Sequence record: PZ445440.1
Reading direction: 5' to 3' (one strand)
Length of the DNA: 64,000 nucleotides
From: a phage
The notes below the pieces were generated by a model. It searched no databases. It was not told the origin of the DNA and saw only the letters and a program-made list of their open reading frames with translations. The first letter of the stretch is position 1. Each line of letters begins with the position of its first letter. Of this stretch, positions 1-44,277 are shown piece by piece. Both the position numbers and the translations under genes were made by a program.

Positions 1-315
1 TGACCAAAGATACTGAACATAATCCTGAATAGCTTTCTTCTTCCACTCAACTAGTTCTCTTTTTGAACCAGGATTTATCGTGTTGAGTGTATAGTTAAAG
101 CAAATACCTAATTCGTTACAACGTTTAACGTAATCTTCTAACATCTTTTTGTCAACGTCAGGAAGCCTAAAATCAGGTCTGGCTGCTACAAAAGCCATTT
201 CTCTTGTAGAGCCGTATACTTCATTTATCAAGCTATTAGGATAAGTTTTATTGAGCTCTACGATTTTATCAAGAAGAGCTAAATCAAAATTCGTTCCGAT
301 TTTAAAAGTATTCAT
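1..315 (-). CDS. hypothetical protein, N-terminal 105 aa only (gene runs past window start); distal member of the sugar-nucleotide cluster
   Basis: ATG at 315 on minus strand, open to position 1 (MNTFKIGTNFDLALLDKIVELNKTYPNSLINEVYGSTRE...); absent from ORF track because truncated; no family recognised. Confidence 0.4.
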   Translation of the reverse strand, partial: MNTFKIGTNFDLALLDKIVELNKTYPNSLINEVYGSTREMAFVAARPDFRLPDVDKKMLEDYVKRCNELGICFNYTLNTINPGSKRELVEWKKKAIQDYVQYLWS

Positions 316-371: not shown

Positions 372-758
372 TTATAGATTCGGTTTATATGATTTAAATG
401 TTTCGAATTCGCCTTTATTCATAAGAGCTTTGAATTCGTCAGGACGCATAGCTTTGTCGTCGATAATCCAATCATATACTGGTTTATGTGTTAGCAAATT
501 ATGGTACTTCAATCCAATGTTTGCTAAGTTCTGAATCAGACTTGGGAGAATGTCGATTGCTATACGACCAGGACCTACTGACTTCATACCGCGAGCAGTG
601 TAAAGCGTTATGGTATGCCCTGCATCATACAGGGCATTAATGGCAGACACCATTTCGACGTCTGGTTTGAAGTTCACATAATCACGGTTGTTATTCCACT
701 CTGTTATACAATCATCGACATCAAAACAAAGATTAAGCATGTTTTCTACACGGTGCAT
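372..758 (-). CDS. small HAD-superfamily phosphatase-like protein
   Basis: LNLCFDVDDCITEW (HAD motif I DxD), TLYTARG, HKP..IIDDK; ATG at 758 overlaps upstream stop (TAATG). Confidence 0.5.
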   Translation of the reverse strand: MHRVENMLNLCFDVDDCITEWNNNRDYVNFKPDVEMVSAINALYDAGHTITLYTARGMKSVGPGRIAIDILPSLIQNLANIGLKYHNLLTHKPVYDWIIDDKAMRPDEFKALMNKGEFETFKSYKPNL

Positions 759-2443
759 TAGATTCGTTCCCATTGATGAGTGATATCGCCACCGATTGGA
801 CGATAGGAAACACCAGTTTCTTTATCAGTTAGTACCCATTTACCAGGATTTTTTGTAATAAGAGTAGCCGTTACAGGTTCTGCTACGTCATAACTAATAG
901 AGCCGTCTTGAAGTACACGGCCCATGTTACGTAATTGCTTAGTCAGAAGTTCCATACCTTTATAATATGCGGCTACCGCTTTAAGTGGATTATTCTTGAA
1001 ATAACCACCTAATGCAATCCAGATAATTGCCACCGCCAAATGATGATACTCGTTAAACGAACTCATCTTTCCATATTTGTAAATTAATGGATTGATGTTA
1101 ATAGTCACATTACAAGTTGTTTCATCAATAGTAAACTGTCCCCAGGTCGGATTAGCATTGAATTCATCATAACCTGAAACAGCGTAAAGCACTTTAGCTT
1201 CATCGTACAATTTTGGCCCGTAAATCTTGGTTTCACCAAAATATCCACGAGGGTCGATAAACTTGACTTCGCCATTATCAGTAATCATAGTATTACTGAA
1301 GTTCGGGTCACCATGAATAACAGAGTACTGTCCCTGAGAACGGTTATGATAACGAATAAGGTGTTCTAAAGCTTGTTTCAACATTGGCTTCAGACGTCCA
1401 ATCTTAGTGTAGTTCACATGTGTGATTTTACCAAATGAATCAATCAATGGTTGAATGCTTTCACAACGATCAATAACTTTCGTATAGAATTCTTTAGTGA
1501 AATCACGACGGACAGTTTCAGGACTTACAAAATAAGTGTCTGTGCTGAATTTCAGTGCATCTAAAATTGCATCAACAATTTGTGGACGAGCAAGACTTGA
1601 TTTGGATTTAATATATTCAAATGCCGGCTTACCTTTAATGCGTTCCATTTCAAAGTTATTTTCATTAACAGAAACTAACTGAGGAACTGAATCTGATTTC
1701 ACTTTCAAGTACCACGAAATCTCATCTTTCTGAAGAGCTCGACCCTGTTCGGTTAATGCGAATTTAGTTACAGTTTCTTCACCAATTTCAACTGCATTAA
1801 AACTACGATTAAGTTCACGAACTTCATGAGCTTTTTCAAGTTTAGGCATATCACCTAAATCAATTAGATTCATAAGCTCTGATTTATTGAATGCGCCGCT
1901 GTAAAGGAATTCTACGAAATCACGTCCTTTGCAGTATTCATGAATTTCCTCATCAGTAGAACCCATATAGAATTCCCAGTCTTTGAACTGATAAATTCCT
2001 ACAACATTACCGCCTGTTGCACCTACATTAGTGATATTTTCACCGTCGAAATTATATCGACATTCGTCACCCTTAACATAGATTGCGTTAACATTCCAAG
2101 ACCATGAACCAAAATCAGGAATAATATCACACCAGTTAACAATTACGTTATGGCCGTCTAAATCTTTGTGTAATTTAGCAAGAGCATAAGCAGAACCATA
2201 CGCTTCATCAACTGTACGAATAGTCACATTGAACCCTTCTTGCTCACAATAAGCTCGAACAGTTTCAGCAAATTTTGAATGAACTACTACAATAATTTCA
2301 TCTGCGCCAAGGTCAGAATAAATTGTATACAAATTGCTCAGAATAGTGTCTTGTTTATAGTTAACAAGCACCTTAGGAATATGATGCGTTATTGGATACA
2401 AACGAGTTGCCAGTCCAGCACCAAGAATAACAGCTTTTTTCAT
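758..2443 (-). CDS. bifunctional sugar-1-phosphate nucleotidyltransferase (N-term) / APH-type anomeric sugar kinase (C-term)
   Basis: N-term MKKAVILGAGLATRLYPIT matches GxGxRLxPxT of RmlA/GlmU-type pyrophosphorylases; C-term VIHGDPNFSNTMI..FIDPRG matches HGDxxxxN and DxG of aminoglycoside/choline-kinase fold. Confidence 0.75.
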   Translation of the reverse strand: MKKAVILGAGLATRLYPITHHIPKVLVNYKQDTILSNLYTIYSDLGADEIIVVVHSKFAETVRAYCEQEGFNVTIRTVDEAYGSAYALAKLHKDLDGHNVIVNWCDIIPDFGSWSWNVNAIYVKGDECRYNFDGENITNVGATGGNVVGIYQFKDWEFYMGSTDEEIHEYCKGRDFVEFLYSGAFNKSELMNLIDLGDMPKLEKAHEVRELNRSFNAVEIGEETVTKFALTEQGRALQKDEISWYLKVKSDSVPQLVSVNENNFEMERIKGKPAFEYIKSKSSLARPQIVDAILDALKFSTDTYFVSPETVRRDFTKEFYTKVIDRCESIQPLIDSFGKITHVNYTKIGRLKPMLKQALEHLIRYHNRSQGQYSVIHGDPNFSNTMITDNGEVKFIDPRGYFGETKIYGPKLYDEAKVLYAVSGYDEFNANPTWGQFTIDETTCNVTININPLIYKYGKMSSFNEYHHLAVAIIWIALGGYFKNNPLKAVAAYYKGMELLTKQLRNMGRVLQDGSISYDVAEPVTATLITKNPGKWVLTDKETGVSYRPIGGDITHQWERI

Positions 2444-2484
2444 GTTGTGGTCCTCATTGGTAAGTAGAAGTATTGTACACTATT

Positions 2485-2628
2485 CTAGTTAAAGCATTCA
2501 TACTTCGCTTGTAGTCCAATCATAATCCATCCAATTACAAGTGTTGGAATCATTACTGGAGCCGTTAAGCTCCAGTAGATAGTCATGACAAGCATCAATA
2601 GTAAAAGTCCTATTGTTATTGTTTTCAT
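2485..2628 (-). CDS. small hydrophobic protein (47 aa)
   Basis: hand translation MKTITIGLLLLMLVMTIYWSLTAPVMIPTLVIGWIMIGLQAKYECFN; ATGA overlap with upstream SIS gene stop. Confidence 0.35.
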   Translation of the reverse strand: MKTITIGLLLLMLVMTIYWSLTAPVMIPTLVIGWIMIGLQAKYECFN

Positions 2629-3260
2629 TGTTCGCCTCGTAACATGGCACCTAGTGCGCCGCCTGGATGGAACTTAAGGAAATCATTAGAGGTAAATCCA
2701 CGTTCAGACGAAAGGTTGATAGCGAACGTATCGATAAGCGCTAACAACAATGTAGTAGACATTGTCGGAGCTAAAGAGTTCTCGTCAACTTCTACCGCGA
2801 TACCGGTACAGAACGTATAATCAAAAAGAGCTTCGTATTCTTGTGGAATGTCAGGGTTACAATGTAACAGAATCTGTTTAACCTGAGGACGAATCATACG
2901 AAGATGTTTAGCAACACCTATCATTTCTTCAGTCTTACCAGAACGACTGATGTGAACTAATACATCATTAGGTGCAATAAATCCTGCGTCGCCATGAGAA
3001 TAATGCCCGGTGTTCAAGTACATACTCGGGATACCTAGTGAAGCAAAAGTCTCGGAAGCTTTAGTTGCGATATTAGCATTCTTACCAACACCTGTAATAA
3101 TTACACGACTTTCGTAATTACTCAGTCCAGGGCGACGAAGAGTTTCAAGAATAGCATTATATCGGGCAGGGTTTTGACTAATTATTTTAGCCATAGTGGC
3201 AAGAGATGAAGCTTGTTTTACGATTGCGTCAATAGCGATAGTGATTGGTGTAGTTTTCAT
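2625..3260 (-). CDS. SIS-domain sugar-phosphate isomerase, KdsD/GutQ (arabinose-5-phosphate isomerase)-like, no CBS domains
   Basis: ITGVGKNANIATKASETFASLGIPS...HGDAG...ISRSGKTEE and LAPTMSTT...FHPGGALG align with E. coli KdsD SIS domain from memory. Confidence 0.8.
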   Translation of the reverse strand: MKTTPITIAIDAIVKQASSLATMAKIISQNPARYNAILETLRRPGLSNYESRVIITGVGKNANIATKASETFASLGIPSMYLNTGHYSHGDAGFIAPNDVLVHISRSGKTEEMIGVAKHLRMIRPQVKQILLHCNPDIPQEYEALFDYTFCTGIAVEVDENSLAPTMSTTLLLALIDTFAINLSSERGFTSNDFLKFHPGGALGAMLRGEQ

Positions 3261-7030: not shown

Positions 7031-7993
7031 TTATTTCCAAGTCAATTCACAAGTCAATTGAAGAAGCATATACATAACATGTAATTCAATATTACTAGCT
7101 AGCCCATGAAACTTATTATTTTCGCCTGCAATTTCGTAAAGCGAAATAATACTTTTACCAGGTGCAACTTTGTCATAACACTCAGAAACTAATTTATCTA
7201 TGAACCATGAATAATCAGCGGCATATTTTGGAGCTAATGCACGAAGCTGTTTGATATCTTTATTTTTCATTGCTTCTATGACATCATCTACCGTGCCACG
7301 ATCATTGGTTACAATCGACAAAATACCTGCATCAAGAACACCTTTAGACGAGTACTGGTCTAATTGTCCAATTGTACGACGAAAGTCCGGGAAGTTCTTT
7401 TTAACAAGAGCTGCAACAACTTTCATATCAGCGATTTCAATATTTTCGTTCTTACAGATTTCAACCATACGATGAATCATTTTCTTCATCATCGAGATTT
7501 TATCTTCTTCGGTTGGACGTCCGAATTCGATAACTCGACAACGACTACGCAATGGTTCAATAATTCCATCGATGTTGTTAGCAGTAATAATAATAGAACA
7601 GTTACTAGAGAATTCTTCCATGAATGTACGAAGGTGTCGTTGTGATTCAGCAAGGCCACTACGGTCAAATTCATCAATAACAATAACTTTAGGCTTGCCT
7701 TCCATTGAGACTGAACGAGCAAATGCAGTTAACGGGCCGCGTACAAAATCAATCTTACAATCGGAACCGTTGACAAACATCATTTCGGCATTGATATCAT
7801 TACATAATGCTTTTGCTACGGTTGTTTTACCTGTGCCAGGAGAAGGAGAGTGCAAAATAATATGAGGAAGTTTTCCTTTAGATACTAAAGACTTGAATGT
7901 TTCATGGTCATACGCAGGCAGAATACATTCGTCAATGGAAGAAGGACGATATTTCTGTTCTAGAATGTGTTCTTTGGAATTGATAGTAATCAT
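7031..7993 (-). CDS. 44: clamp loader ATPase gp44 (AAA+)
   Basis: 320 aa, Walker [11 protein letters not shown], Walker B VIVIDEFD. Confidence 0.9.
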
Positions 7994-9433: not shown

Positions 9434-9470
9434 TGATGTGGTCATTATAACCACATCATGTTAAAGCGTT
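9434..9470 (-). promoter_or_regulatory. middle-type promoter: MotA-box-like AACGCTTTAAC, -10 TATAAT (9444-9449) inside inverted repeat TGATGTGG/CCACATCA
   Basis: read from sequence. Confidence 0.45.
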
Positions 9471-11158
9471 TATGAAACAGTCATTACAGTAAATCGTCCA
9501 ACTTTGCTCATCTGAAGATGTTGTCCATAAGCTTGTGGGTCATGGTCTCTGTGACTAATTATAAACACGTTTGCATTGGTTAGAGAGTTAAGAATTGTTG
9601 AAATAGCTTTAATACCTTCAGAATCAGTCGCGGAATCCATGACTTCGTCCATAATTAATGTATTGATTCTAACACCAGAAACCTTTTCAGCAATATCTCG
9701 CCATGTAAACAACAACGCGATATCGATACGTGCTTTTTCACCTTGACTAAATGAAGCATAACTGAACTCTTCACGACCACGTGATTTTATAGATTCATTG
9801 AATTCTTCGTCAATAGAAAACACGTAATCGGCTTCCATGATTTTAAGATAATGGTTAATCTGCTTATTGAACAAAGGCACGTATTTTTTAATGATAGCAC
9901 CTTTAATACCAGAATCTTTTAACATATCTGTGATAATACCACGGTGGTATTTTTCAAGAACGATGTCTGATTTTGTTTTAATGATTTTATCAAGTTCTTT
10001 TTGAAGCAAAGCTATCTCATCGGCATGGTCGATAAATTCCGCCGAGGCTTGTTCTATTGCAGCTTTAACTTTCTTAGCTTTATCAATAGTGGCAATCATT
10101 GCTTGTTTCTTGGTACGAATATCAGATGCAAGGTCCTGTTTAGTCTTAACATTAGCTCTGTATTCGTCCACTAGGACACTCAGATTATCTCTGTGACATG
10201 TAAGTTGCTCGAATGAGTGATTACATTCGTGAAGCTTATCGGTAATCTTAGAGACAATAGGATCACCCTGGTGCAACTGTGATGCGCAAGTAGGACACGT
10301 ACCGCCATCATGATACATCTTAATAACTTTGTTATATGAGTCGATTTTAGATTTAATCAAGAATGCTTCTTGTCCTATCTTGTTGAATGCCTCAGTAGGG
10401 TCTTCATCAAGAACGATATTAAGTAGTCGCTCATTAGCTTCTTCGATTTCTGCTTTTAATGAACGAGCTTCTTTGGCTAGGTCGTCATACATATTCTGTA
10501 GACGCGCTACATTATCGCCAGATAATTTCTTTTGACGTTCGATATTCTCGTTATAAATCTTAATTTGTTGGATAACACCATCTTTCTTGGCATCGAGAAC
10601 TTGCCCTTGGGAATTAAGTTCTCGAACTTGAGACTTATTGATTTTATCCATTTCAGCGAGTGTGCCAACTTCTAAAAGGTCTTCGACAAGTTTTCTACGA
10701 GCAGGGGTGCTAAGAGCCATGAAAGGGGTATACCCTGCCGTCCCAAGCACAACGATTTGTTTAAAAGACGCGTATGACATTCCGATGCTACGTTCAAATT
10801 CTTCTTGGAAGTCACGACTGCTGGCAGATTCATCGAGACGAACACCGTCAACGGAGATTTCGAAAATATTGGGCTTTTGGCCACGTCTAATGAAGTATTT
10901 TTTATCATCGAATTCCATCCAAAGCTCAACTAAGAGCTCTTTCTTGTTCGTGCTATTAATGATTTGTCCTTTCTTAACATCACGAAATGGTTTACCGAAA
11001 AGTCCGAAAGTAATGGCTTCTAACATCGTAGATTTACCACCGCCATTTTTACCAGTGATTAATGTCTTTTGGACTTTATCTAATTGGATATCAATAGGAT
11101 TCCCACCTACCGACATGATGTTTTGATAACGAACACGATTTAATTTAAATGATTTCAT
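9470..11158 (-). CDS. 46: recombination endonuclease subunit gp46 (Rad50/SbcC-like ATPase)
   Basis: 562 aa, Walker A GKNGGGKST, long coiled coil, C-terminal ATPase half. Confidence 0.9.
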   Translation of the reverse strand: MKSFKLNRVRYQNIMSVGGNPIDIQLDKVQKTLITGKNGGGKSTMLEAITFGLFGKPFRDVKKGQIINSTNKKELLVELWMEFDDKKYFIRRGQKPNIFEISVDGVRLDESASSRDFQEEFERSIGMSYASFKQIVVLGTAGYTPFMALSTPARRKLVEDLLEVGTLAEMDKINKSQVRELNSQGQVLDAKKDGVIQQIKIYNENIERQKKLSGDNVARLQNMYDDLAKEARSLKAEIEEANERLLNIVLDEDPTEAFNKIGQEAFLIKSKIDSYNKVIKMYHDGGTCPTCASQLHQGDPIVSKITDKLHECNHSFEQLTCHRDNLSVLVDEYRANVKTKQDLASDIRTKKQAMIATIDKAKKVKAAIEQASAEFIDHADEIALLQKELDKIIKTKSDIVLEKYHRGIITDMLKDSGIKGAIIKKYVPLFNKQINHYLKIMEADYVFSIDEEFNESIKSRGREEFSYASFSQGEKARIDIALLFTWRDIAEKVSGVRINTLIMDEVMDSATDSEGIKAISTILNSLTNANVFIISHRDHDPQAYGQHLQMSKVGRFTVMTVS

Positions 11159-11409: not shown

Positions 11410-11638
11410 TACACGCTTCAGCCATTTTAAGAATAGAGCCGGGAGTATCGTTGTCCATTATATTAAAGCTAAATTCAATAGCCCAGTCGGTGCAGACATG
11501 AACTGCTTTAACTTCATTGCCTTCAACGCGTAATGGCTCAATCCAATACTTGATAGTGTTCTCGAATCCATCATCATCTTTAACGTCTATTTCAACTTCA
11601 AGCCTGAGTCCAGCATTGTTAAATTCATCTAAAGTCAT
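11381..11638 (-). CDS. hypothetical protein
   Basis: track ORF, acidic small protein. Confidence 0.5.
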   Translation of the reverse strand: MTLDEFNNAGLRLEVEIDVKDDDGFENTIKYWIEPLRVEGNEVKAVHVCTDWAIEFSFNIMDNDTPGSILKMAEACIEDAYNDED

Positions 11639-12654
11639 TGTGTTGCCTCAATATAAAGTTCGTTGGAATATTTGACCAGCGCTTCTCTGTCTTCGTCTGA
11701 GATATCTGGAATCGCGTCAATATATTCTTTAATGATATCTTGAAGTGATTTAATCTCGATTTCCTGGTCGTCATCAGATTCAACACTGTTATCAACTTTA
11801 GAAACCATACGAAGAGAGTGAACTACTTTTTCAAGTTCAGATTCAAACTTAGTCAACTCTGAATCAATTTCTGATACTATAACACGTACGGCTAGATTGG
11901 TATAATCAGAATAATTGATTTTGCCTTTAAACGGATAAGTGATTCGTCGATGCCATGTTGTTTCATTAGGAATAAATTCCATACGTTCAACATCAGTGTC
12001 AAATACCCAGAATCCACGAGGATCATTCTCATCGCCTGCAGTAAGGGTCCATGGTGTCCCAATATATTTGACGTTAGCAGCTTCAGAGATTGTGTGGAAG
12101 TGGCCAGACCAGACTTGTTTATAGGTCTTTAAGAAATCAGGTTCAAGCCCATGAGACTTCATTCCTTTATAGAAATAAAAACCATTCAGTTCCCAGTGCC
12201 CAACACAATACGCTGCAGAAGAAGTCTTGATGTGCTCTAAGATTTCACCTGTATTTTCTTCACACATCCATGGAACGATATCAATCAGACATCCGTCAAA
12301 ATCTACAGTAGTTGGATGCTCGTAAATAGTAAAGTTTTCAAATTGAGTTAACAATTCAGAAACAGTGTTAGGTGTTATGGTATTCTTAAACGCCATGTCA
12401 TGATTTCCTATCGTGACATGAACGTGAATGCCTGCTTTAGAAATCATATCAACGATTTCACGATTGAATTCCATTGTACGATGTGTTATTGCTTTACGGA
12501 CGTCAAACCAATCACCGTACTGAATCCAAGTTTTAATCCCGTGTTTCTTAGAGTATTCAATTGCTTGACGAATACCATCACGTTGAATATCTTGAACCCA
12601 TGGGTCGTCTTGTTTGACTCCGATATGGAAGTCGCCTAAGTGCAAAATTTTCAT
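11635..12654 (-). CDS. 47: recombination endonuclease subunit gp47 (Mre11/SbcD-like phosphoesterase)
   Basis: 339 aa, MKILHLGDFHIG...GNHD calcineurin-like motifs. Confidence 0.9.
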   Translation of the reverse strand: MKILHLGDFHIGVKQDDPWVQDIQRDGIRQAIEYSKKHGIKTWIQYGDWFDVRKAITHRTMEFNREIVDMISKAGIHVHVTIGNHDMAFKNTITPNTVSELLTQFENFTIYEHPTTVDFDGCLIDIVPWMCEENTGEILEHIKTSSAAYCVGHWELNGFYFYKGMKSHGLEPDFLKTYKQVWSGHFHTISEAANVKYIGTPWTLTAGDENDPRGFWVFDTDVERMEFIPNETTWHRRITYPFKGKINYSDYTNLAVRVIVSEIDSELTKFESELEKVVHSLRMVSKVDNSVESDDDQEIEIKSLQDIIKEYIDAIPDISDEDREALVKYSNELYIEATQ

Positions 12655-12677
12655 ATTATTTCCTCATTAGTTAATTC

Positions 12678-12724
12678 ATTCTATCATCCGTTTATAAAGC
12701 AAAAAAGGAACTCCGAAGAGTTCC
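12678..12724 (-). promoter_or_regulatory. terminator hairpin (12707-12724, GGAACTC-TTCG-GAGTTCC + U-tract) overlapping MotA box TTTGCTTTA (12695-12703) and -10 TAGAAT (12678-12683) upstream of gene 47
   Basis: read from sequence; MotA box matches T4 middle-promoter consensus. Confidence 0.5.
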
Positions 12725-12936
12725 TATCCACATAGTACACCGTACAGAGGCTCATTTGAACTTTTAAATCGAATGGGCTTGTATGTAATAGTTCCTTCGG
12801 CTTTAGCTTTATCATAAGACTCTTTAAAACGTCTCATTCTTTCTGCTTTGCCTTTACGGATTTTATCGAAATTTTCAGAAGTCGGGATGTTCGTCATGCA
12901 TAAGCACCTCTCAGAAAATGCCTAAATCAATTTCTC

Positions 12937-13158
12937 TCATCGTTTCCACCATTTCTTAACTTGAAATGAATCGACCCACACGAGTTGTTTTGGGTCTGCC
13001 TTTACAATAGGCGGACAAATTTCTGTAATAGAACCGTCGTGATATTCCTTTTCAGAAATTTTAACACAAAGAGGACCTCCCAATTTAAGGGTGAACCCTG
13101 CGTTCAGCTTCAGACGTTTAAACTTTATTTGAACTAGCGCCATTAATGATGTCCTCAA
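12937..13158 (-). CDS. hypothetical protein
   Basis: track ORF at the position where T4 has alpha-gt; no glycosyltransferase features. Confidence 0.4.
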   Translation of the reverse strand: MRTSLMALVQIKFKRLKLNAGFTLKLGGPLCVKISEKEYHDGSITEICPPIVKADPKQLVWVDSFQVKKWWKR

Positions 13159-13441
13159 TAGCCTGACGAGTAGTAACCCACTGGATTTTAATTAACTTGT
13201 CATTGTATGGTTGTCGTAGAATATCCCGAGATTTCTTAATAGCATATTCGTAAGCTTCGAAGTTGTTTTGAATTGCTGCTTCTTGAGCATGAGCATAAAG
13301 ACGGTTTAGTTCAAAACGATTCTTTTTAAGAATCTTTTCGGATTTTTTACGTGCTTCAGCTTCATTTTTCTTTTGGATTTCTTGTAGCATTTTAGCTACT
13401 GCATCTTCTGCTTCTTTATTTTCAATAATCTCGGTAGTCAT
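13118..13441 (-). CDS. hypothetical coiled-coil protein
   Basis: track ORF. Confidence 0.5.
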   Translation of the reverse strand: MTTEIIENKEAEDAVAKMLQEIQKKNEAEARKKSEKILKKNRFELNRLYAHAQEAAIQNNFEAYEYAIKKSRDILRQPYNDKLIKIQWVTTRQAIEDIINGASSNKV

Positions 13442-13442
13442 A

Positions 13443-13658
13443 TTATCTCATTAAATTAAAATAAAAACGTCCATCCTCTTCAATACAGAACTCGTACTCA
13501 ACTGGAGTTCCATTTATCGAAAATGACACGTCATGTGGGTTCAAAGGGTCGATGTCAAAATTAATTTTAAATTCTCGACCCAACAGTTTTACCAAATAAG
13601 GGATTGCTTCGTCAAAAGGTTCTTCTAAGTAGTTAGAGATGTCAATTGTCATCCTCAT
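13443..13658 (-). CDS. hypothetical protein
   Basis: track ORF trimmed to internal ATG to limit overlap with gene 55. Confidence 0.45.
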
Positions 13659-14199
13659 ATAAAAAATCCAAACTAGGCGAATCGCTAACAACTTCCTTCT
13701 TTTCAGCCCCAGGAGCTTTATAAGCGGATTCTTCATAATGCGTCATTTTATCGTAGATGTCTTGAATAAACGTTTCATCTACCAACGCTACCATATCATC
13801 GTCATGACTGTCGTAGACATTATGAACGAAGTAACTATATTTCTTTGCAACTTCCTTACGTTCTTTTTTGATACGTTGGACAAAAGCATTAAAACAAGCT
13901 CGAGTTATGTATGCATGTGGGTTATTGTACTTAGTTTCGTCGAAATTATGAAGTCCCTTAATAGAGGCTTCAATCCCATCTGCAATCATCTCCTGCTTCC
14001 AAGACTGGGTATATCCTGAAAAGTTGAAACGTTTGGACAGGCCTTCGGCGATAAGCATAATTGCTAAACCGATGGTATCATTCTGACGAATAATTTTGTT
14101 TGGGTCTTTATTATTTAAGAGCTCCTTTTTCCACTCGATTATAGCGGCGAGAAGCTCTTTATTATTCACATAGTTATTTTTAGGTTTTTGTTCAGTCAT
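13642..14199 (-). CDS. 55: late-transcription sigma factor gp55
   Basis: 185 aa; [67 protein letters not shown] matches T4 gp55. Confidence 0.95.
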
Positions 14200-14220
14200 A
14201 AGTACCTCTTAGCTCAATTC

Positions 14221-14265
14221 ATAGGTCTATTATATCATAATATTTAGAGACCTATCTTAAAGCAC
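14221..14265 (-). promoter_or_regulatory. gene 55 promoter region: MotA-box-like TGCTTTAAG, -10 inside inverted repeat ATAGGTCT/AGACCTAT
   Basis: read from sequence. Confidence 0.4.
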
Positions 14266-14274
14266 GAGATACTA

Positions 14275-14541
14275 TCAGAGCAAACAATAAGCCTGAAACA
14301 CTTTTTCCATTAAACGTTTGAACTCATGGATATCGATATAAAGCTCAGTAAGACCGGCATTATAAAGAAAATCTAAAAAGTTCTCATGTGTTTCGTTATA
14401 GACGCCTTCGTTTAATTGAGATACATGAGTTTCCCAAAAACCAACACCTTTAACGAATGGAAAATACGTGACTTTCATGTATTCGTCAACATAAAATTCG
14501 CCCAGCTTTTCTTCAGTTATACTGATTCGAGTTAATTTCAT
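14275..14541 (-). CDS. hypothetical protein
   Basis: track ORF. Confidence 0.5.
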   Translation of the reverse strand: MKLTRISITEEKLGEFYVDEYMKVTYFPFVKGVGFWETHVSQLNEGVYNETHENFLDFLYNAGLTELYIDIHEFKRLMEKVFQAYCLL

Positions 14542-14765
14542 TCTAGTTCCTTTGCTGCTTCAAGAGCAGCATCCAGCGAATCAAATTGGTCAACGAAATC
14601 AATATTCAACGCATCGTCAACCGTAGCATATAACCACCATTGTTTGAATTCGTATTCTAGAATAAATCCAGGACCTTCAATCTGAGGAAGACCTAGGCTA
14701 TTTGTACCAACTTCGTAACCAGCTAGACGCAGGTCATTAATCAAAGTTTCTGTTAATACGCTCAT
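14538..14765 (-). CDS. hypothetical protein
   Basis: track ORF, ATGA-coupled. Confidence 0.5.
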   Translation of the reverse strand: MSVLTETLINDLRLAGYEVGTNSLGLPQIEGPGFILEYEFKQWWLYATVDDALNIDFVDQFDSLDAALEAAKELE

Positions 14766-16125: not shown

Positions 16126-16354
16126 TGCGTTTGATAAAATTCACTTCACTTACTGAAAGGTCTTTAAGACCGATTGATTCTAAACGCTGAGTAAGCGTCA
16201 ACATCGGGATATAATCCCAATGAGTTTTATTTGCTTGATAAGTACGAACGCCGTTAGCAATTTCAACATGCAAATCGGAAATGGTAATGAATATCGGACG
16301 TTCGTCATTAACTTTAAGGGTTAGAACAACTTTCTTTGAATCTAAACTAATCAT
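16106..16354 (-). CDS. hypothetical protein
   Basis: track ORF. Confidence 0.5.
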   Translation of the reverse strand: MISLDSKKVVLTLKVNDERPIFITISDLHVEIANGVRTYQANKTHWDYIPMLTLTQRLESIGLKDLSVSEVNFIKRIVSINL

Positions 16355-26891: not shown

Positions 26892-27872
26892 TTATTTCAG
26901 TAAAGTTACTTCAGAGATTTCCTCCCAACCATCTTTATCAGTTGAAATAAAATCTGCTACATAAAGAGCCGTACGTAATGATACATTGCGAAGACGAGAT
27001 ACGTTAGCCTTCATCCAAGATAATGCTTTATACGTTTCTGCATCAGTCAGACCACGTTTCTGCATCATGTCAGTAGATAATATTACATCTTCAACTCGAA
27101 CCATAATCTCTTCATTAGAGTGTACTCCAAGGTCAAGATACACTGAACGAGATACTAAAGCTTGAAGGTGTGGAGCAAGTTTAGAACCGCGTTCTAACTC
27201 TTTATCGATATCAACGTTTGTAATGAAAACGATAGTACCTTCAAACTCAAATTCTTTATCGATACCCTTATCATCAAGATAAGATGATGCAGTGCTCCAA
27301 CAAACTTTGCGTTTATCACCGGTATCTAATGCGGCTTTAAGAAGGTTCAAGATGTCCATATCTGAGAATACGTCAACGTCGTCGATTAAGAGAACGCTGT
27401 CTGCATCACGGTTGAGCCAAAGTTGTTCGTAAAGGCCAATACCAGAGATTTTACCATTAATACTTTTGTATTTGATGAAACCATTATCATTAGCATTATT
27501 AAGTGCTTTATCCAGAGAATACGTCTTACCAATACCTGCTGCACCTGAAATAATGAGTGAACGAATTTTGCCATCGATAATGCCATTCGTCATCATGTTC
27601 ATTACTTTAAAGCGTTTGTTGATACGAGTTTTCATATCTTCAGTGCTTTCAATAACTGCAACTGGTGACGTCTCAACTCCTTCCATTACGATGTCTGATT
27701 TGAAGACCCATACTCCACGTTCAGAGCCATCAATCATAACGAAAATTTTACCATCACCTAAGTGGGAACATTCAGGATTAAGCTTTGCCGGGAACCATGT
27801 CTTTGTGGCAACATAAGAACCAGAGATTTCGTTATTACGATAGATACCTTTTTTGATTTGAACGTTGAACAT
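26892..27872 (-). CDS. AAA+/P-loop ATPase of unknown function
   Basis: Walker A SGAAGIGKT, Walker B VLLIDDVD, IVFITN; start at ATG preceded by GGAGAA. Confidence 0.65.
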   Translation of the reverse strand: MFNVQIKKGIYRNNEISGSYVATKTWFPAKLNPECSHLGDGKIFVMIDGSERGVWVFKSDIVMEGVETSPVAVIESTEDMKTRINKRFKVMNMMTNGIIDGKIRSLIISGAAGIGKTYSLDKALNNANDNGFIKYKSINGKISGIGLYEQLWLNRDADSVLLIDDVDVFSDMDILNLLKAALDTGDKRKVCWSTASSYLDDKGIDKEFEFEGTIVFITNVDIDKELERGSKLAPHLQALVSRSVYLDLGVHSNEEIMVRVEDVILSTDMMQKRGLTDAETYKALSWMKANVSRLRNVSLRTALYVADFISTDKDGWEEISEVTLLK

Positions 27873-27987: not shown

Positions 27988-28977
27988 TCATTTATAGTAC
28001 GAATTGTGGTTTTCTAAGTAGACTTGTTCAAGGAAGTCATCCCAGAAACTCATATCTACTTTTTGTTGCATACCATTCTTAGCAGCTTGTTCTGCTGCAT
28101 GTTCAACTTGGTCAACGATATCTTCTAGGAATTCCTGTATGGTTTTAAACGTATGTTTACCAAGCTTAACATCGAGAATAAATGGAGCATCCTGAAGCGG
28201 GTAAACCAGGTCGCCGGTTTTGTAAATTTCTAGGAGCTGAAGTCCACCACGGCATGCATGACTCAATGCTTTCCAATCAATACCTTCATTGGCTTCTGCC
28301 TTACGAGCACGTTCACCGTAGTTCTCTTCAAGTTTAACCAGGATGGCATTGAACTCTTTATTGGTTAACGTGTCTTGGAATTTACGGTCCAACAGACTAT
28401 AGAATGTTTGCTTACCTGTTTTCTCATTTTCGGTTTCAACCCACGAAGCAAATTCACCTACAGGCAGAACATTCTTCATATGTGATAAACGAATTACTGC
28501 ACCATTATCAAAGTATCGTCCCCATTCATTAGAACGTTTAAGGGCTTGACGAAGAACAGCCAGTCGAGAACCCTTGACACCGTATTTAGAAGCTTGCTTA
28601 CGGACATACCCTAAATAAGATTTCATGTTAGTGGTATAGAAACGAGACCTGTTATCTTGAATATACTTCCATACATCAGGCAAATCAGATTTAACTACTA
28701 GACTTTGTGGAGTGTGAAGCATATCTAATGCGACGGTTTCACCATCAGCAGCTAGTTTAAAGAAATATTTGAGACTATACAACTCATGGTCCACGTCGTC
28801 TTTTGTGTTCTTAGAAGATGTGTTATTCGTGTTCTTGCTCATGTGTTCTTTAACGTTACCGGTCAAGATATCACGAGCATGAGGGACATAAATTTCTTTA
28901 AAATCGACGTCAGATTCAGGAGTAGACGTTCCATAAAGGTGGCTACCAAAGTAAGCCTTAACAATCGTTTTCATCAT
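27988..28977 (-). CDS. polymerase-beta-superfamily nucleotidyltransferase-like protein
   Basis: FGSHLYGTSTPESDVDF matches hG[GS]x9-13Dh[DE]h nucleotidyltransferase-fold signature (MNT/OAS/cGAS class); C-terminal helical region. Confidence 0.55.
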   Translation of the reverse strand: MMKTIVKAYFGSHLYGTSTPESDVDFKEIYVPHARDILTGNVKEHMSKNTNNTSSKNTKDDVDHELYSLKYFFKLAADGETVALDMLHTPQSLVVKSDLPDVWKYIQDNRSRFYTTNMKSYLGYVRKQASKYGVKGSRLAVLRQALKRSNEWGRYFDNGAVIRLSHMKNVLPVGEFASWVETENEKTGKQTFYSLLDRKFQDTLTNKEFNAILVKLEENYGERARKAEANEGIDWKALSHACRGGLQLLEIYKTGDLVYPLQDAPFILDVKLGKHTFKTIQEFLEDIVDQVEHAAEQAAKNGMQQKVDMSFWDDFLEQVYLENHNSYYK

Positions 28978-43311: not shown

Positions 43312-43664
43312 CTTATTTCCTTAACGAATTCCATAGCTTCTTCATATTCATACTTTTTAACAGCTTCATCATACTGAGCTTGGGCTTTTGCGCACTGAAC
43401 TTTCCACTCGCGAACTCGAGCTCTGTGATGACGGCCTTGGTGCCAATATCCTGCCCAATTAATAGGCATTAATAAAAACGGTACAATAAGTGGTGCGACG
43501 AACATTAATGAAAACGCTGCATCAGACGATATAACTTTATTGGAATCTAAAATAGCTCCTATAATCATAAAGATTAAAAATGCTAAAGCTAAAATAGGGC
43601 CAAATAGTACTTCGTTTGGGATTAATTTACGTTTGTATTCGTATGCCCAGGGCTTAATTGGCAT
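43290..43664 (-). CDS. membrane protein (C-terminus EFVKEIRCKSLNS)
   Basis: track ORF trimmed to internal ATG. Confidence 0.5.
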   Translation of the reverse strand: MPIKPWAYEYKRKLIPNEVLFGPILALAFLIFMIIGAILDSNKVISSDAAFSLMFVAPLIVPFLLMPINWAGYWHQGRHHRARVREWKVQCAKAQAQYDEAVKKYEYEEAMEFVKEIRCKSLNS

Positions 43665-44277
43665 GTACAGGGTTGGCTTTGACATATTCTCTACATTCCA
43701 TAATAAATTGCTCAAGGATTAAATTGTTAGTGAAATTAGGACTAACAACCATAGTTTCATAAAGCGCATCAATAGCACTTAAAGCATCAACTCTTTTAAG
43801 CAAAGGCTTGCCTTCATACATAGTTTCAGAATCGACGATTAACGTAAAGTAATATTTTTTATTATCGACTAGAACTTCTGTGTCGATATAAAACATATTA
43901 GACCTCAGAAGCTTATCTCTAAAACCATAATAATCTTCTGAACGTTCGCTGATATATTCCCATTCAGTGTTTAAACAACAAACAGACCACGTAGGAGCAA
44001 CGAAATCAGTGAATCTAATATCATGGTCTGCAACTAGTTTAGCAATAGCTCCGATATCATGAATCATAATACCTGGGGCTAATAAAGATTTTCTGCTATG
44101 GCTAGCCGTTTTCTCAGTGGTCTCATAAGAAGCCGACCAGTACCATTTACGTCCGGTTGCAACATATCGTAATGAATCAACTAAAGACGTAGGTGGATTT
44201 ACCTTATCTCGGAACTCTTCGAACATTGAGTCAATATCATTATTTTGGTTTCGCATGTTAACTCCTTTATCATCCAA
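43654..44277 (-). CDS. hypothetical protein (207 aa) with EQFIMECREY near C-terminus
   Basis: track ORF. Confidence 0.55.
   Translation of the reverse strand: MDDKGVNMRNQNNDIDSMFEEFRDKVNPPTSLVDSLRYVATGRKWYWSASYETTEKTASHSRKSLLAPGIMIHDIGAIAKLVADHDIRFTDFVAPTWSVCCLNTEWEYISERSEDYYGFRDKLLRSNMFYIDTEVLVDNKKYYFTLIVDSETMYEGKPLLKRVDALSAIDALYETMVVSPNFTNNLILEQFIMECREYVKANPVHAN

Follow-up and report, generated by a model that had tools for sequence, protein, structure and literature searches.

T4 DNA carries glucosyl-hydroxymethylcytosine, produced via a-gt and b-gt. The initial annotation of the DNA described here correctly placed the T4 a-gt gene in the interval from gene 47 to gene 55, where the gene order is 47, 47.1, a-gt, mobB, a-gt.2, a-gt.3, a-gt.4, a-gt.5, 55. 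In RB69 there is no homologue of a-gt, b-gt or ba-gt, the DNA contains arabinose, and ORF003c, which profile methods place as a very distant GT-B relative of a-gt, was proposed as the transferase (Thomas et al., 2018, PMC6024577). RB69 DNA has since been reported to contain arabinosylated 5-hydroxycytosine (PMC13326640). The base is 5-hydroxycytosine with one or two arabinoses in ether linkage; gp48 makes 5-hydroxy-dCMP, while gp51, gp52:53 and gp55 are assigned to UDP-arabinofuranose synthesis (Lee et al., 2026, PMC13326640), the gp52:53-type enzyme making UDP-arabinose (PMC13326640). Mosigvirus DNA had already been described as arabinosylated in the BASEL paper (PMC8594841), and the same arabinosyl-5-hydroxycytosine chemistry is found in Mosigvirus NP (PMC13390438). 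The DNA of Bas46 and Bas47 contains arabinosylated 5hodC according to PMC13326640, which cites Mahler et al. (2025) and He et al. (2026). Bas46 itself is among the phages studied by Mahler et al. (2025) (PMC13326640, PMC13216743), with no substantive difference from the system described below. In phage HY126, the Afh pathway uses the same enzymes (He et al., 2026, as cited in PMC13326640 and PMC13216743), and the PDB entries 9IQC/9IR2, 9IQZ/9IR0 and 9IQW match Bas46 proteins over their full length.

Here we describe the junction between genes 47 and 55 in a 64-kb stretch of phage DNA (the window, taken as a whole). The window is an exact substring of MZ501056.1 (positions 96479-160478, 100% identity), the genome of Escherichia phage ChristianSchoenbein (BASEL collection Bas46), an RB69-like coliphage of the genus Mosigvirus; megablast of 11600-14300 also led to MZ501056.1 at 100% identity. 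We hold with high confidence that this is an ordinary Mosigvirus 55-to-47 junction without a-gt, in a phage that arabinosylates its DNA instead of glucosylating it, and no observation in the analysis was found to contradict this explanation. The absence of a-gt and the arabinosylation are already published for Bas46 and its close relatives and are ordinary features of the group. That RB69-like phages have no T4-type glucosyltransferases has been on record since 2018 (PMC6024577); publications from 2025-2026, with Bas46 among the phages investigated, described the arabinosyl-5-hydroxycytosine chemistry and its enzymes, together with several crystal structures. Our results are mainly confirmatory, with corrections to the earlier description of the junction: four conserved genes (a-gt.2 to a-gt.5) are present, the absence of a-gt at this site is the norm in the family and tells little about the sugar, and the base is 5-hydroxycytosine, not hydroxymethylcytosine.

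Gene content of the junction between genes 47 and 55

The interval between genes 47 and 55 covers 12655-13641 (987 bp). Both flanking genes are on the minus strand, as are the four small genes in between, all of them annotated in MZ501056.1:

11635..12654, minus strand: gene 47, SbcD-like recombination nuclease subunit (339-aa ORF; left border of the interval)
12724..12897, minus strand: a-gt.2 orthologue, 57 aa, DUF5486 (bas46_0160)
12937..13143, minus strand: a-gt.3 orthologue, 68 aa from the ATG at 13143 (bas46_0161)
13118..13441, minus strand: a-gt.4 orthologue, 107 aa, DUF2654 (Pfam PF10849, E 1e-27)
13443..13658, minus strand: a-gt.5 orthologue, 71 aa, DUF5491 (Pfam PF17595, E 6e-13)
13642..14199, minus strand: gene 55, late sigma factor (185-aa ORF; right border of the interval)

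The gene 47 product is 76% identical to T4 gp47 and 100% identical to RB69 gp47, and the gene 55 product is 91% identical to T4 gp55. The initial annotation had described three small unrelated ORFs in the interval. It missed the 57-aa gene at 12724-12897, and the label "unrelated" is wrong, since all four genes have orthologues in T4, namely a-gt.2 to a-gt.5, with identities from 76% for a-gt.2 (tblastn, E 3e-24) through 71% for a-gt.3 (E 7e-30) and 58% for a-gt.4 (E 2e-32) to 47% for a-gt.5 (E 1e-14). The ORF listed there at 73 aa begins at an upstream TTG; the ATG at 13143 yields the 68 aa that align with T4 a-gt.3. The a-gt.2 orthologue matches Pfam PF17588 (E 4.5e-28) and phrog_2140, the a-gt.3 orthologue matches phrog_1648, and all four genes fall in PHROG families of unknown function. 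A scan against Rfam, with E up to 1, returned no structured RNA family in 12300-14300.

In RB69, the junction has the same order as in the window (55, a-gt.5, a-gt.4, a-gt.3, a-gt.2, hairpin/promoter, 47), the junction proteins are 95-100% identical (95% for a-gt.2, 100% for a-gt.4), and a single base distinguishes the two intergenic modules. The names a-gt.2 to a-gt.5 have been in place in the RB69 GenBank record since its deposition. T4 shares with the window the flanking genes 47 and 55 and the block a-gt.2 to a-gt.5. Between the a-gt.5 orthologue and the 3' end of gene 55 there is an overlap of 17 nt, identical to that of T4, and the 26-nt overlap of the a-gt.4 and a-gt.3 orthologues is also much like that in T4. 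Unlike the window, T4 has in addition 47.1, a-gt, the homing endonuclease gene mobB and a second copy of the hairpin-promoter module. As 55-to-47 junctions of RB69-like T-even phages go, that of the window is ordinary and has the conserved small early/middle gene block a-gt.2 to a-gt.5.

A hairpin and predicted middle promoter upstream of gene 47

Only 69 nt separate the stop codon of a-gt.2 from the start codon of gene 47. Two adjoining features were recognized here:

12700..12725, minus strand: C(UUCG)G tetraloop hairpin followed by UUUUUU, just past the a-gt.2 stop codon (terminator scan)
12678..12704, minus strand: middle-promoter-like site with MotA box TTTGCTTTA, 11-nt spacer and -10 hexamer TAGAAT (direct reading and pattern match)

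On the coding strand the hairpin reads AGGAACUC-UUCG-GAGUUCCU, followed by UUUUUU and running into TTTGCTTTA. The terminator scan puts the hairpin at 12725-12706. Its fold energy is -13.9 kcal/mol (z-score -3.2), a value that none of 200 shuffled sequences equalled, and it is a putative terminator or mRNA-stabilising hairpin. T4 middle promoters have the consensus MotA box (a/t)(a/t)(a/t)TGCTT(t/c)A about 11-13 bp upstream of a TAnnnT -10 hexamer. The predicted site, some 24 nt ahead of the ATG of gene 47, fits this MotA-dependent consensus with TTTGCTTTA, 11 nt and TAGAAT, and MotA is encoded by Bas46 (bas46_0089). The terminator/middle-promoter element proposed in the initial annotation is thereby borne out at the level of prediction. 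By its sequence, the module would end the upstream transcript at the hairpin and restart transcription from a MotA-type middle promoter into genes 47 and 46.

Other promoter types were also sought. The late promoter TATAAATA is absent between 12655 and 13660, and a sigma-70 promoter scan gave matches no more numerous than in shuffled sequence. A loose MotA-box pattern has 27 matches in the window, is not enriched, and most of its matches are clearly spurious. The idea that the window contains many hairpin-plus-MotA copies was rejected, with the match at 12701 the only one to have a strong adjacent coding-strand hairpin.

The hairpin is kept in RB69, and analogous hairpins occur in T4, RB27, dhaeg, CC31 and Roth79; in T4 the module is of the same UUCG hairpin and MotA-box type. 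A module of hairpin, MotA-like box and -10 is also found ahead of gene 47 in RB69, dhaeg, CC31 and Roth79. In T4, RB27 and Roth79 two module copies bracket a-gt. Composite promoter/stem-loop (PeSL) motifs have been reported to mediate gene shuffling in T4-type phages (Arbiol et al., 2010; Comeau et al., 2014; PMC2839356, PMC4122927). The module resembles a PeSL in that an intergenic stem-loop stands directly before a promoter, and in its repetition at the borders of a variable cassette, i.e., around a-gt in T4, RB27 and Roth79. It differs in that PeSLs were defined with early (sigma-70) promoters, whereas the promoter half of the module looks to be of the MotA-dependent middle type, and in that only one strong copy of the exact module type is present within the window.

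Distribution of a-gt among Straboviridae

Using gp55 as an anchor, we surveyed the junction in other genera. In Dhakavirus dhaeg, the four small genes recur without a-gt. The junction of Karamvirus CC31 holds a-gt.5, a-gt.4, a-gt.3 and one other ORF, again with no a-gt; CC31 nevertheless has b-gt and ba-gt homologues (PMC6024577). In Lazarusvirus DLP2 and Krischvirus MIZ3 there are two small ORFs and no a-gt. Among the genera surveyed, a-gt was found at the junction only in Tequatrovirus (T4, RB27) and in Klebsiella phage Roth79. When T4 a-gt was used as query of a phage collection, 657 records matched, and the carriers among the matches listed were Tequatrovirus-type coliphages (at least 90% identity) and a group of Klebsiella/Raoultella phages (about 66%). 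The absence of a-gt from this junction is the commoner state in Straboviridae and probably the older one. Because it is common, this absence is by itself weak evidence on the identity of the sugar, and the argument of the initial annotation, which took the missing a-gt as support for a non-glucose modification, is weaker than it seems; CC31, with its b-gt and ba-gt homologues, is among the phages without it.

Judging from a compared stretch of about 20 nt, recombination between repeated regulatory modules may have added or removed a-gt as a cassette, as with the PeSL motifs of T4-type phages (PMC2839356, PMC4122927), and the distribution among genera would favour a gain in the lineage of T4 and the Klebsiella phages. 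In T4-like and some Klebsiella phages, a-gt is an extra junction cassette bracketed by two hairpin-promoter modules. We suggest, tentatively and with more doubt than conviction, that the single module upstream of gene 47 is the empty target of a mobile a-gt cassette, and that the a-gt of T4-like and Klebsiella phages was inserted together with a duplicated module copy. If this is true, recombination at these regulatory repeats swaps whole DNA-glycosylation genes between T-even genera, with the 47-55 junction serving as a recurrent landing pad.

The opposite course of events, in which a Mosigvirus ancestor lost a-gt through recombination between two direct-repeat hairpin/MotA-box modules and the single module is the deletion scar, appears unlikely. 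It would account for the hybrid look of the window module, which sits right after the a-gt.2 stop codon, the position of the T4 module on the a-gt.2 side. In its spacer and -10, the window module agrees with the 47.1-side module of T4 (upstream of 47.1/47) at 14 of 17 positions and only poorly with the a-gt.2-side one. Composite hairpin-promoter motifs are, moreover, known to mediate such shuffling (PMC2839356, PMC4122927). However, the same hybrid-looking pattern is expected from insertion of a-gt into an ancestral single module, and the stretch compared is only about 20 nt long. Furthermore, four other genera, some of them distant, are also without a-gt at the junction, so a gain in the Tequatrovirus/Klebsiella-phage lineage needs fewer events than a loss.

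Glucosyltransferase search and the arabinose pathway

No tblastn match to T4 a-gt was found in 12655-13641, and at 987 bp the interval cannot hold the 1203-bp gene, in agreement with the initial annotation. The complete Bas46 genome (169,031 bp) was then used to extend the search for glucosyltransferases beyond the window, with phmmer run against all 384 of its stop-to-stop frames of at least 80 aa; none of these gave an E below 0.04. T4 a-gt (about 400 aa) found nothing significant in the 169-kb genome (best tblastn E 0.066, best phmmer E 0.043), nor did T4 b-gt (351 aa; best tblastn E 4.2, best phmmer E 0.88), and with these two queries the tblastn comparison proposed in the initial annotation gave no homologue of the kind that it had named as refuting. 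Also in the whole genome, the best values were tblastn E 0.85 and phmmer E 0.2 for the T2-type ba-gt of RB27 (280 aa) and tblastn E 2.2 for RB27 a-gt. A match of T4 a-gt to bas46_0234 (window 43990-44169, E 0.025-0.066), 69 aa long at 27% identity, was taken as chance: RB27 a-gt, which is 91% identical to the T4 query, does not reproduce it, and bas46_0234 falls in a PHROG of unknown function and in no Pfam family. No glycosyltransferase Pfam domain was detected in ten other larger hypothetical proteins, of which nine are encoded in the window and one is bas46_0141. An a-gt homologue elsewhere in the genome exists only in the loosest sense, that of the ORF003c type, which differs in both sugar and acceptor.

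Conversely, the genes of an arabinose pathway are present. The window contains the following part of the cluster:

1..315, minus strand: U32-family protein, RB69 gp50 orthologue, N-terminal ~105 codons (bas46_0144; the remainder lies outside the window)
372..773, minus strand: HAD-type phosphatase, AfhF-like, RB69 gp51 orthologue (99% identity to RB69p051)
758..2443, minus strand: bifunctional sugar kinase and nucleotidyltransferase, AfhE-like, RB69 gp52:53 orthologue (561 aa)
2625..3260, minus strand: arabinose-5-phosphate isomerase, SIS domain, RB69 gp55 orthologue (Pfam SIS; first sugar-donor step)

The isomerase matches the NCBIfam families KpsF/GutQ (E 8e-32) and KdsD (E 4e-30) as well as PDB entries 3ETN, 5UQI and 2XHZ, and is 96% identical to RB69p055. 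The 561-aa protein has an N-terminal NTP_transferase domain, NCBIfam matches to sugar-1-phosphate nucleotidyltransferases, and a C-terminal kinase-like region with weak kinase-family matches at residues 344-409; it is 98-99% identical to RB69p052 and RB69p053. The phosphatase matches an NCBIfam capsule biosynthesis phosphatase (E 4e-13), a signature of the HAD-like RB69 gp51/AfhF class (PMC13326640), and PDB 9IQW over its full length (E 8e-88). The U32-family protein, taken in full, matches Pfam Peptidase_U32 (E 7e-11) and is 99.5% identical to RB69p050. The hydroxylase and the two arabinosyltransferases of the system are encoded outside the window. Just beyond its edge, the thymidylate-synthase homologue bas46_0142 is 100% identical to RB69 gp48, with a full-length match to PDB 9IQC (E 4.5e-162) and a very strong one to 9IR2. 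The 299-aa bas46_0141, also outside, is 98-100% identical to RB69p046 and RB69p047 (gp46:47). The glycosyltransferase bas46_0103, about 22 kb farther, is the ORF003c/gp3 orthologue (98.9% identity to RB69p003) and has a very strong full-length match to PDB 9IQZ/9IR0. A GT-B fold has been described for the RB69 orthologues of both proteins, gp46:47 and gp3 (PMC6024577, PMC13326640). Overall, RB69 has the same arabinose-cluster genes, and identity to RB69 gp3 and gp45-gp55 is 96-100% at the protein level.

Bas46 carries the genes of an RB69-type arabinosyl-5-hydroxycytosine system, with predicted 5-hydroxy-dCMP synthase, two arabinosyltransferases and a UDP-arabinose donor pathway. By homology, the genes at 372-3260 are those of the donor pathway; their products, 96-99% identical to RB69 gp51, gp52:53 and gp55, bring the sugar module of the initial annotation into line with its suggested role as the modification pathway. 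Chemistry and enzyme activities are taken from the literature. According to the published work, the flavin-dependent thymidylate-synthase homologue makes 5-hydroxy-dCMP; the three enzymes of 372-3260 (isomerase, kinase/uridylyltransferase and phosphatase) turn ribulose-5-phosphate into UDP-arabinose; and the two GT-B arabinosyltransferases from outside the window attach arabinose, singly or in twos, to 5-hydroxycytosine. The absence of all three transferase types from the whole genome, together with the arabinose cluster, points to a non-glucose sugar. The non-glucose hypermodification proposed in the initial annotation agrees with this and with the arabinose reported for RB69, Bas46, Bas47 and NP, for Bas46 and Bas47 as cited in PMC13326640. 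The published base is 5-hydroxycytosine instead of a derivative of hydroxymethylcytosine (PMC13326640). Bas46 has no a-gt because its lineage does not glucosylate hydroxymethylcytosine, and no T4-type glucosyltransferase because this group of phages is known to put arabinose on its cytosines.

A part in DNA modification for the a-gt.2 to a-gt.5 proteins, which would leave the junction a modification locus even without its transferase, is highly improbable. Their names and their position beside a-gt in T4 are all that speaks for it, and those names reflect position. Phages that glucosylate their DNA (T4, RB27 and Roth79) have the genes too, as do CC31 and dhaeg, whose genus, Dhakavirus, is reported to have a 5hoC/arabinosylation cluster (PMC13326640). 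The matches of the four proteins are limited to domains of unknown function, and the arabinosylation clusters in the literature do not include them (PMC13326640).

We give next to no credence to a glucosyltransferase diverged beyond recognition or relocated, with the phage DNA still glucosylated: although the two GT-B-fold transferases bas46_0103 and bas46_0141 match no Pfam or NCBIfam family, so that their sugar specificity cannot be read from sequence alone, they are 98-100% identical to RB69 gp3 and gp46:47, a complete UDP-arabinose pathway adjoins the transferase genes, the DNA of RB69, NP, Bas46 and Bas47 carries arabinose and not glucose (PMC6024577, PMC13326640, PMC13390438; for Bas46 and Bas47, Mahler et al., 2025, as cited there), and Bas46 without the arabinosyltransferase Aat becomes susceptible to a plasmid-encoded defence system (PMC13216743). 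Nucleosides of close relatives have already been reported to contain pentose adducts (+132 Da) only, with no hexose adducts. Arabinosylation as in RB69 also agrees with the annotation of MZ501056.1, where a "putative hmC-arabinosyltransferase" and several "UDP-arabinose biosynthesis" genes are already labelled. Finally, ORFs 46+47 and 52+53 are split in the RB69 record but are single ORFs in Bas46, which agrees with the report that the RB69 split is a sequencing error (PMC13326640).

Hairpin-promoter modules around a-gt

In T4, RB27 (a Tequatrovirus) and Roth79 (a Klebsiella phage), which carry the alpha-glucosyltransferase gene a-gt, the gene is flanked by two modules, each comprising a C(UUCG)G hairpin, a MotA-like box and a -10 element. 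Phages without a-gt have a single module of this kind, upstream of gene 47.

Module pairs bracketing a-gt (coordinates of sequence pieces L002, L008 and L011)
L002:12586-12624 and 14681-14731, T4
L008:14911-14949 and 16153-16218, RB27
L011:6071-6139 and 7337-7406, Roth79

The presence of two modules with a-gt versus one without it suggests that the a-gt cassette was gained or lost at repeated regulatory motifs.

One a-gt candidate was considered:
43654-44256, minus strand, bas46_0234, 200 aa, function unassigned, phrog_2607

Its match to residues 18-86 of T4 a-gt was marginal (27% identity, E 0.025-0.066) and was not reproduced with RB27 a-gt as query; it was judged to be due to chance.

A U32-family gene in the arabinose cluster

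The 5-hydroxycytosine/arabinose cluster encloses a gene of the U32 peptidase family:
1-315, minus strand, RB69 gp50 orthologue, Pfam PF01136 (full gene, MZ501056.1 95633-96793, or L004:45633-46793)

The Pfam match had an E-value of 7e-11, and the match to UbiU was weak. UbiU/UbiV are oxygen-independent hydroxylases. The 5hodCMP synthase known from phages works with O2, and the U32-family gene could therefore provide an anaerobic route to 5-hydroxycytosine, a link not found in the literature searched. The role of the cluster's U32 protein has been given only vaguely, as a "sugar or heterocycle reductase" (PMC13326640). Formation of 5-hydroxycytidine in 23S rRNA requires the U32 member RlhA (PMC5727448), and tRNA ho5U hydroxylation requires TrhP (PMC6599085).

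Gene models and other window proteins

Splits of RB69 ORFs 46/47 and 52/53 have been attributed to sequencing errors (PMC13326640). In Bas46, ORFs 46 and 47 correspond to one unbroken ORF (MZ501056.1 93739-94638, outside the window), as do ORFs 52 and 53 (window 758-2443), with 98-100% identity to RB69. These single ORFs independently support the published claim.

The MZ501056 annotation starts gene 46 14 codons further in than the first ATG, giving 548 aa:
9470-11158, minus strand, gene 46 ORF, 562 aa from the first ATG

The 562-aa ORF agrees with the annotated RB69 gene (1689 bp) and is close to the 560-aa T4 product; the start in the deposited record has probably been placed too far downstream, which truncates the gene.

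Two "hypothetical" proteins of ~330 aa bear no relation to the a-gt finding:
27988-28977, minus strand
26892-27872, minus strand

One carries a nucleotidyltransferase domain of the RlaP type (RNA repair pathway; E 5e-13). For the other, the P-loop NTPase and helix-turn-helix matches were weak, and none reached the Pfam threshold.
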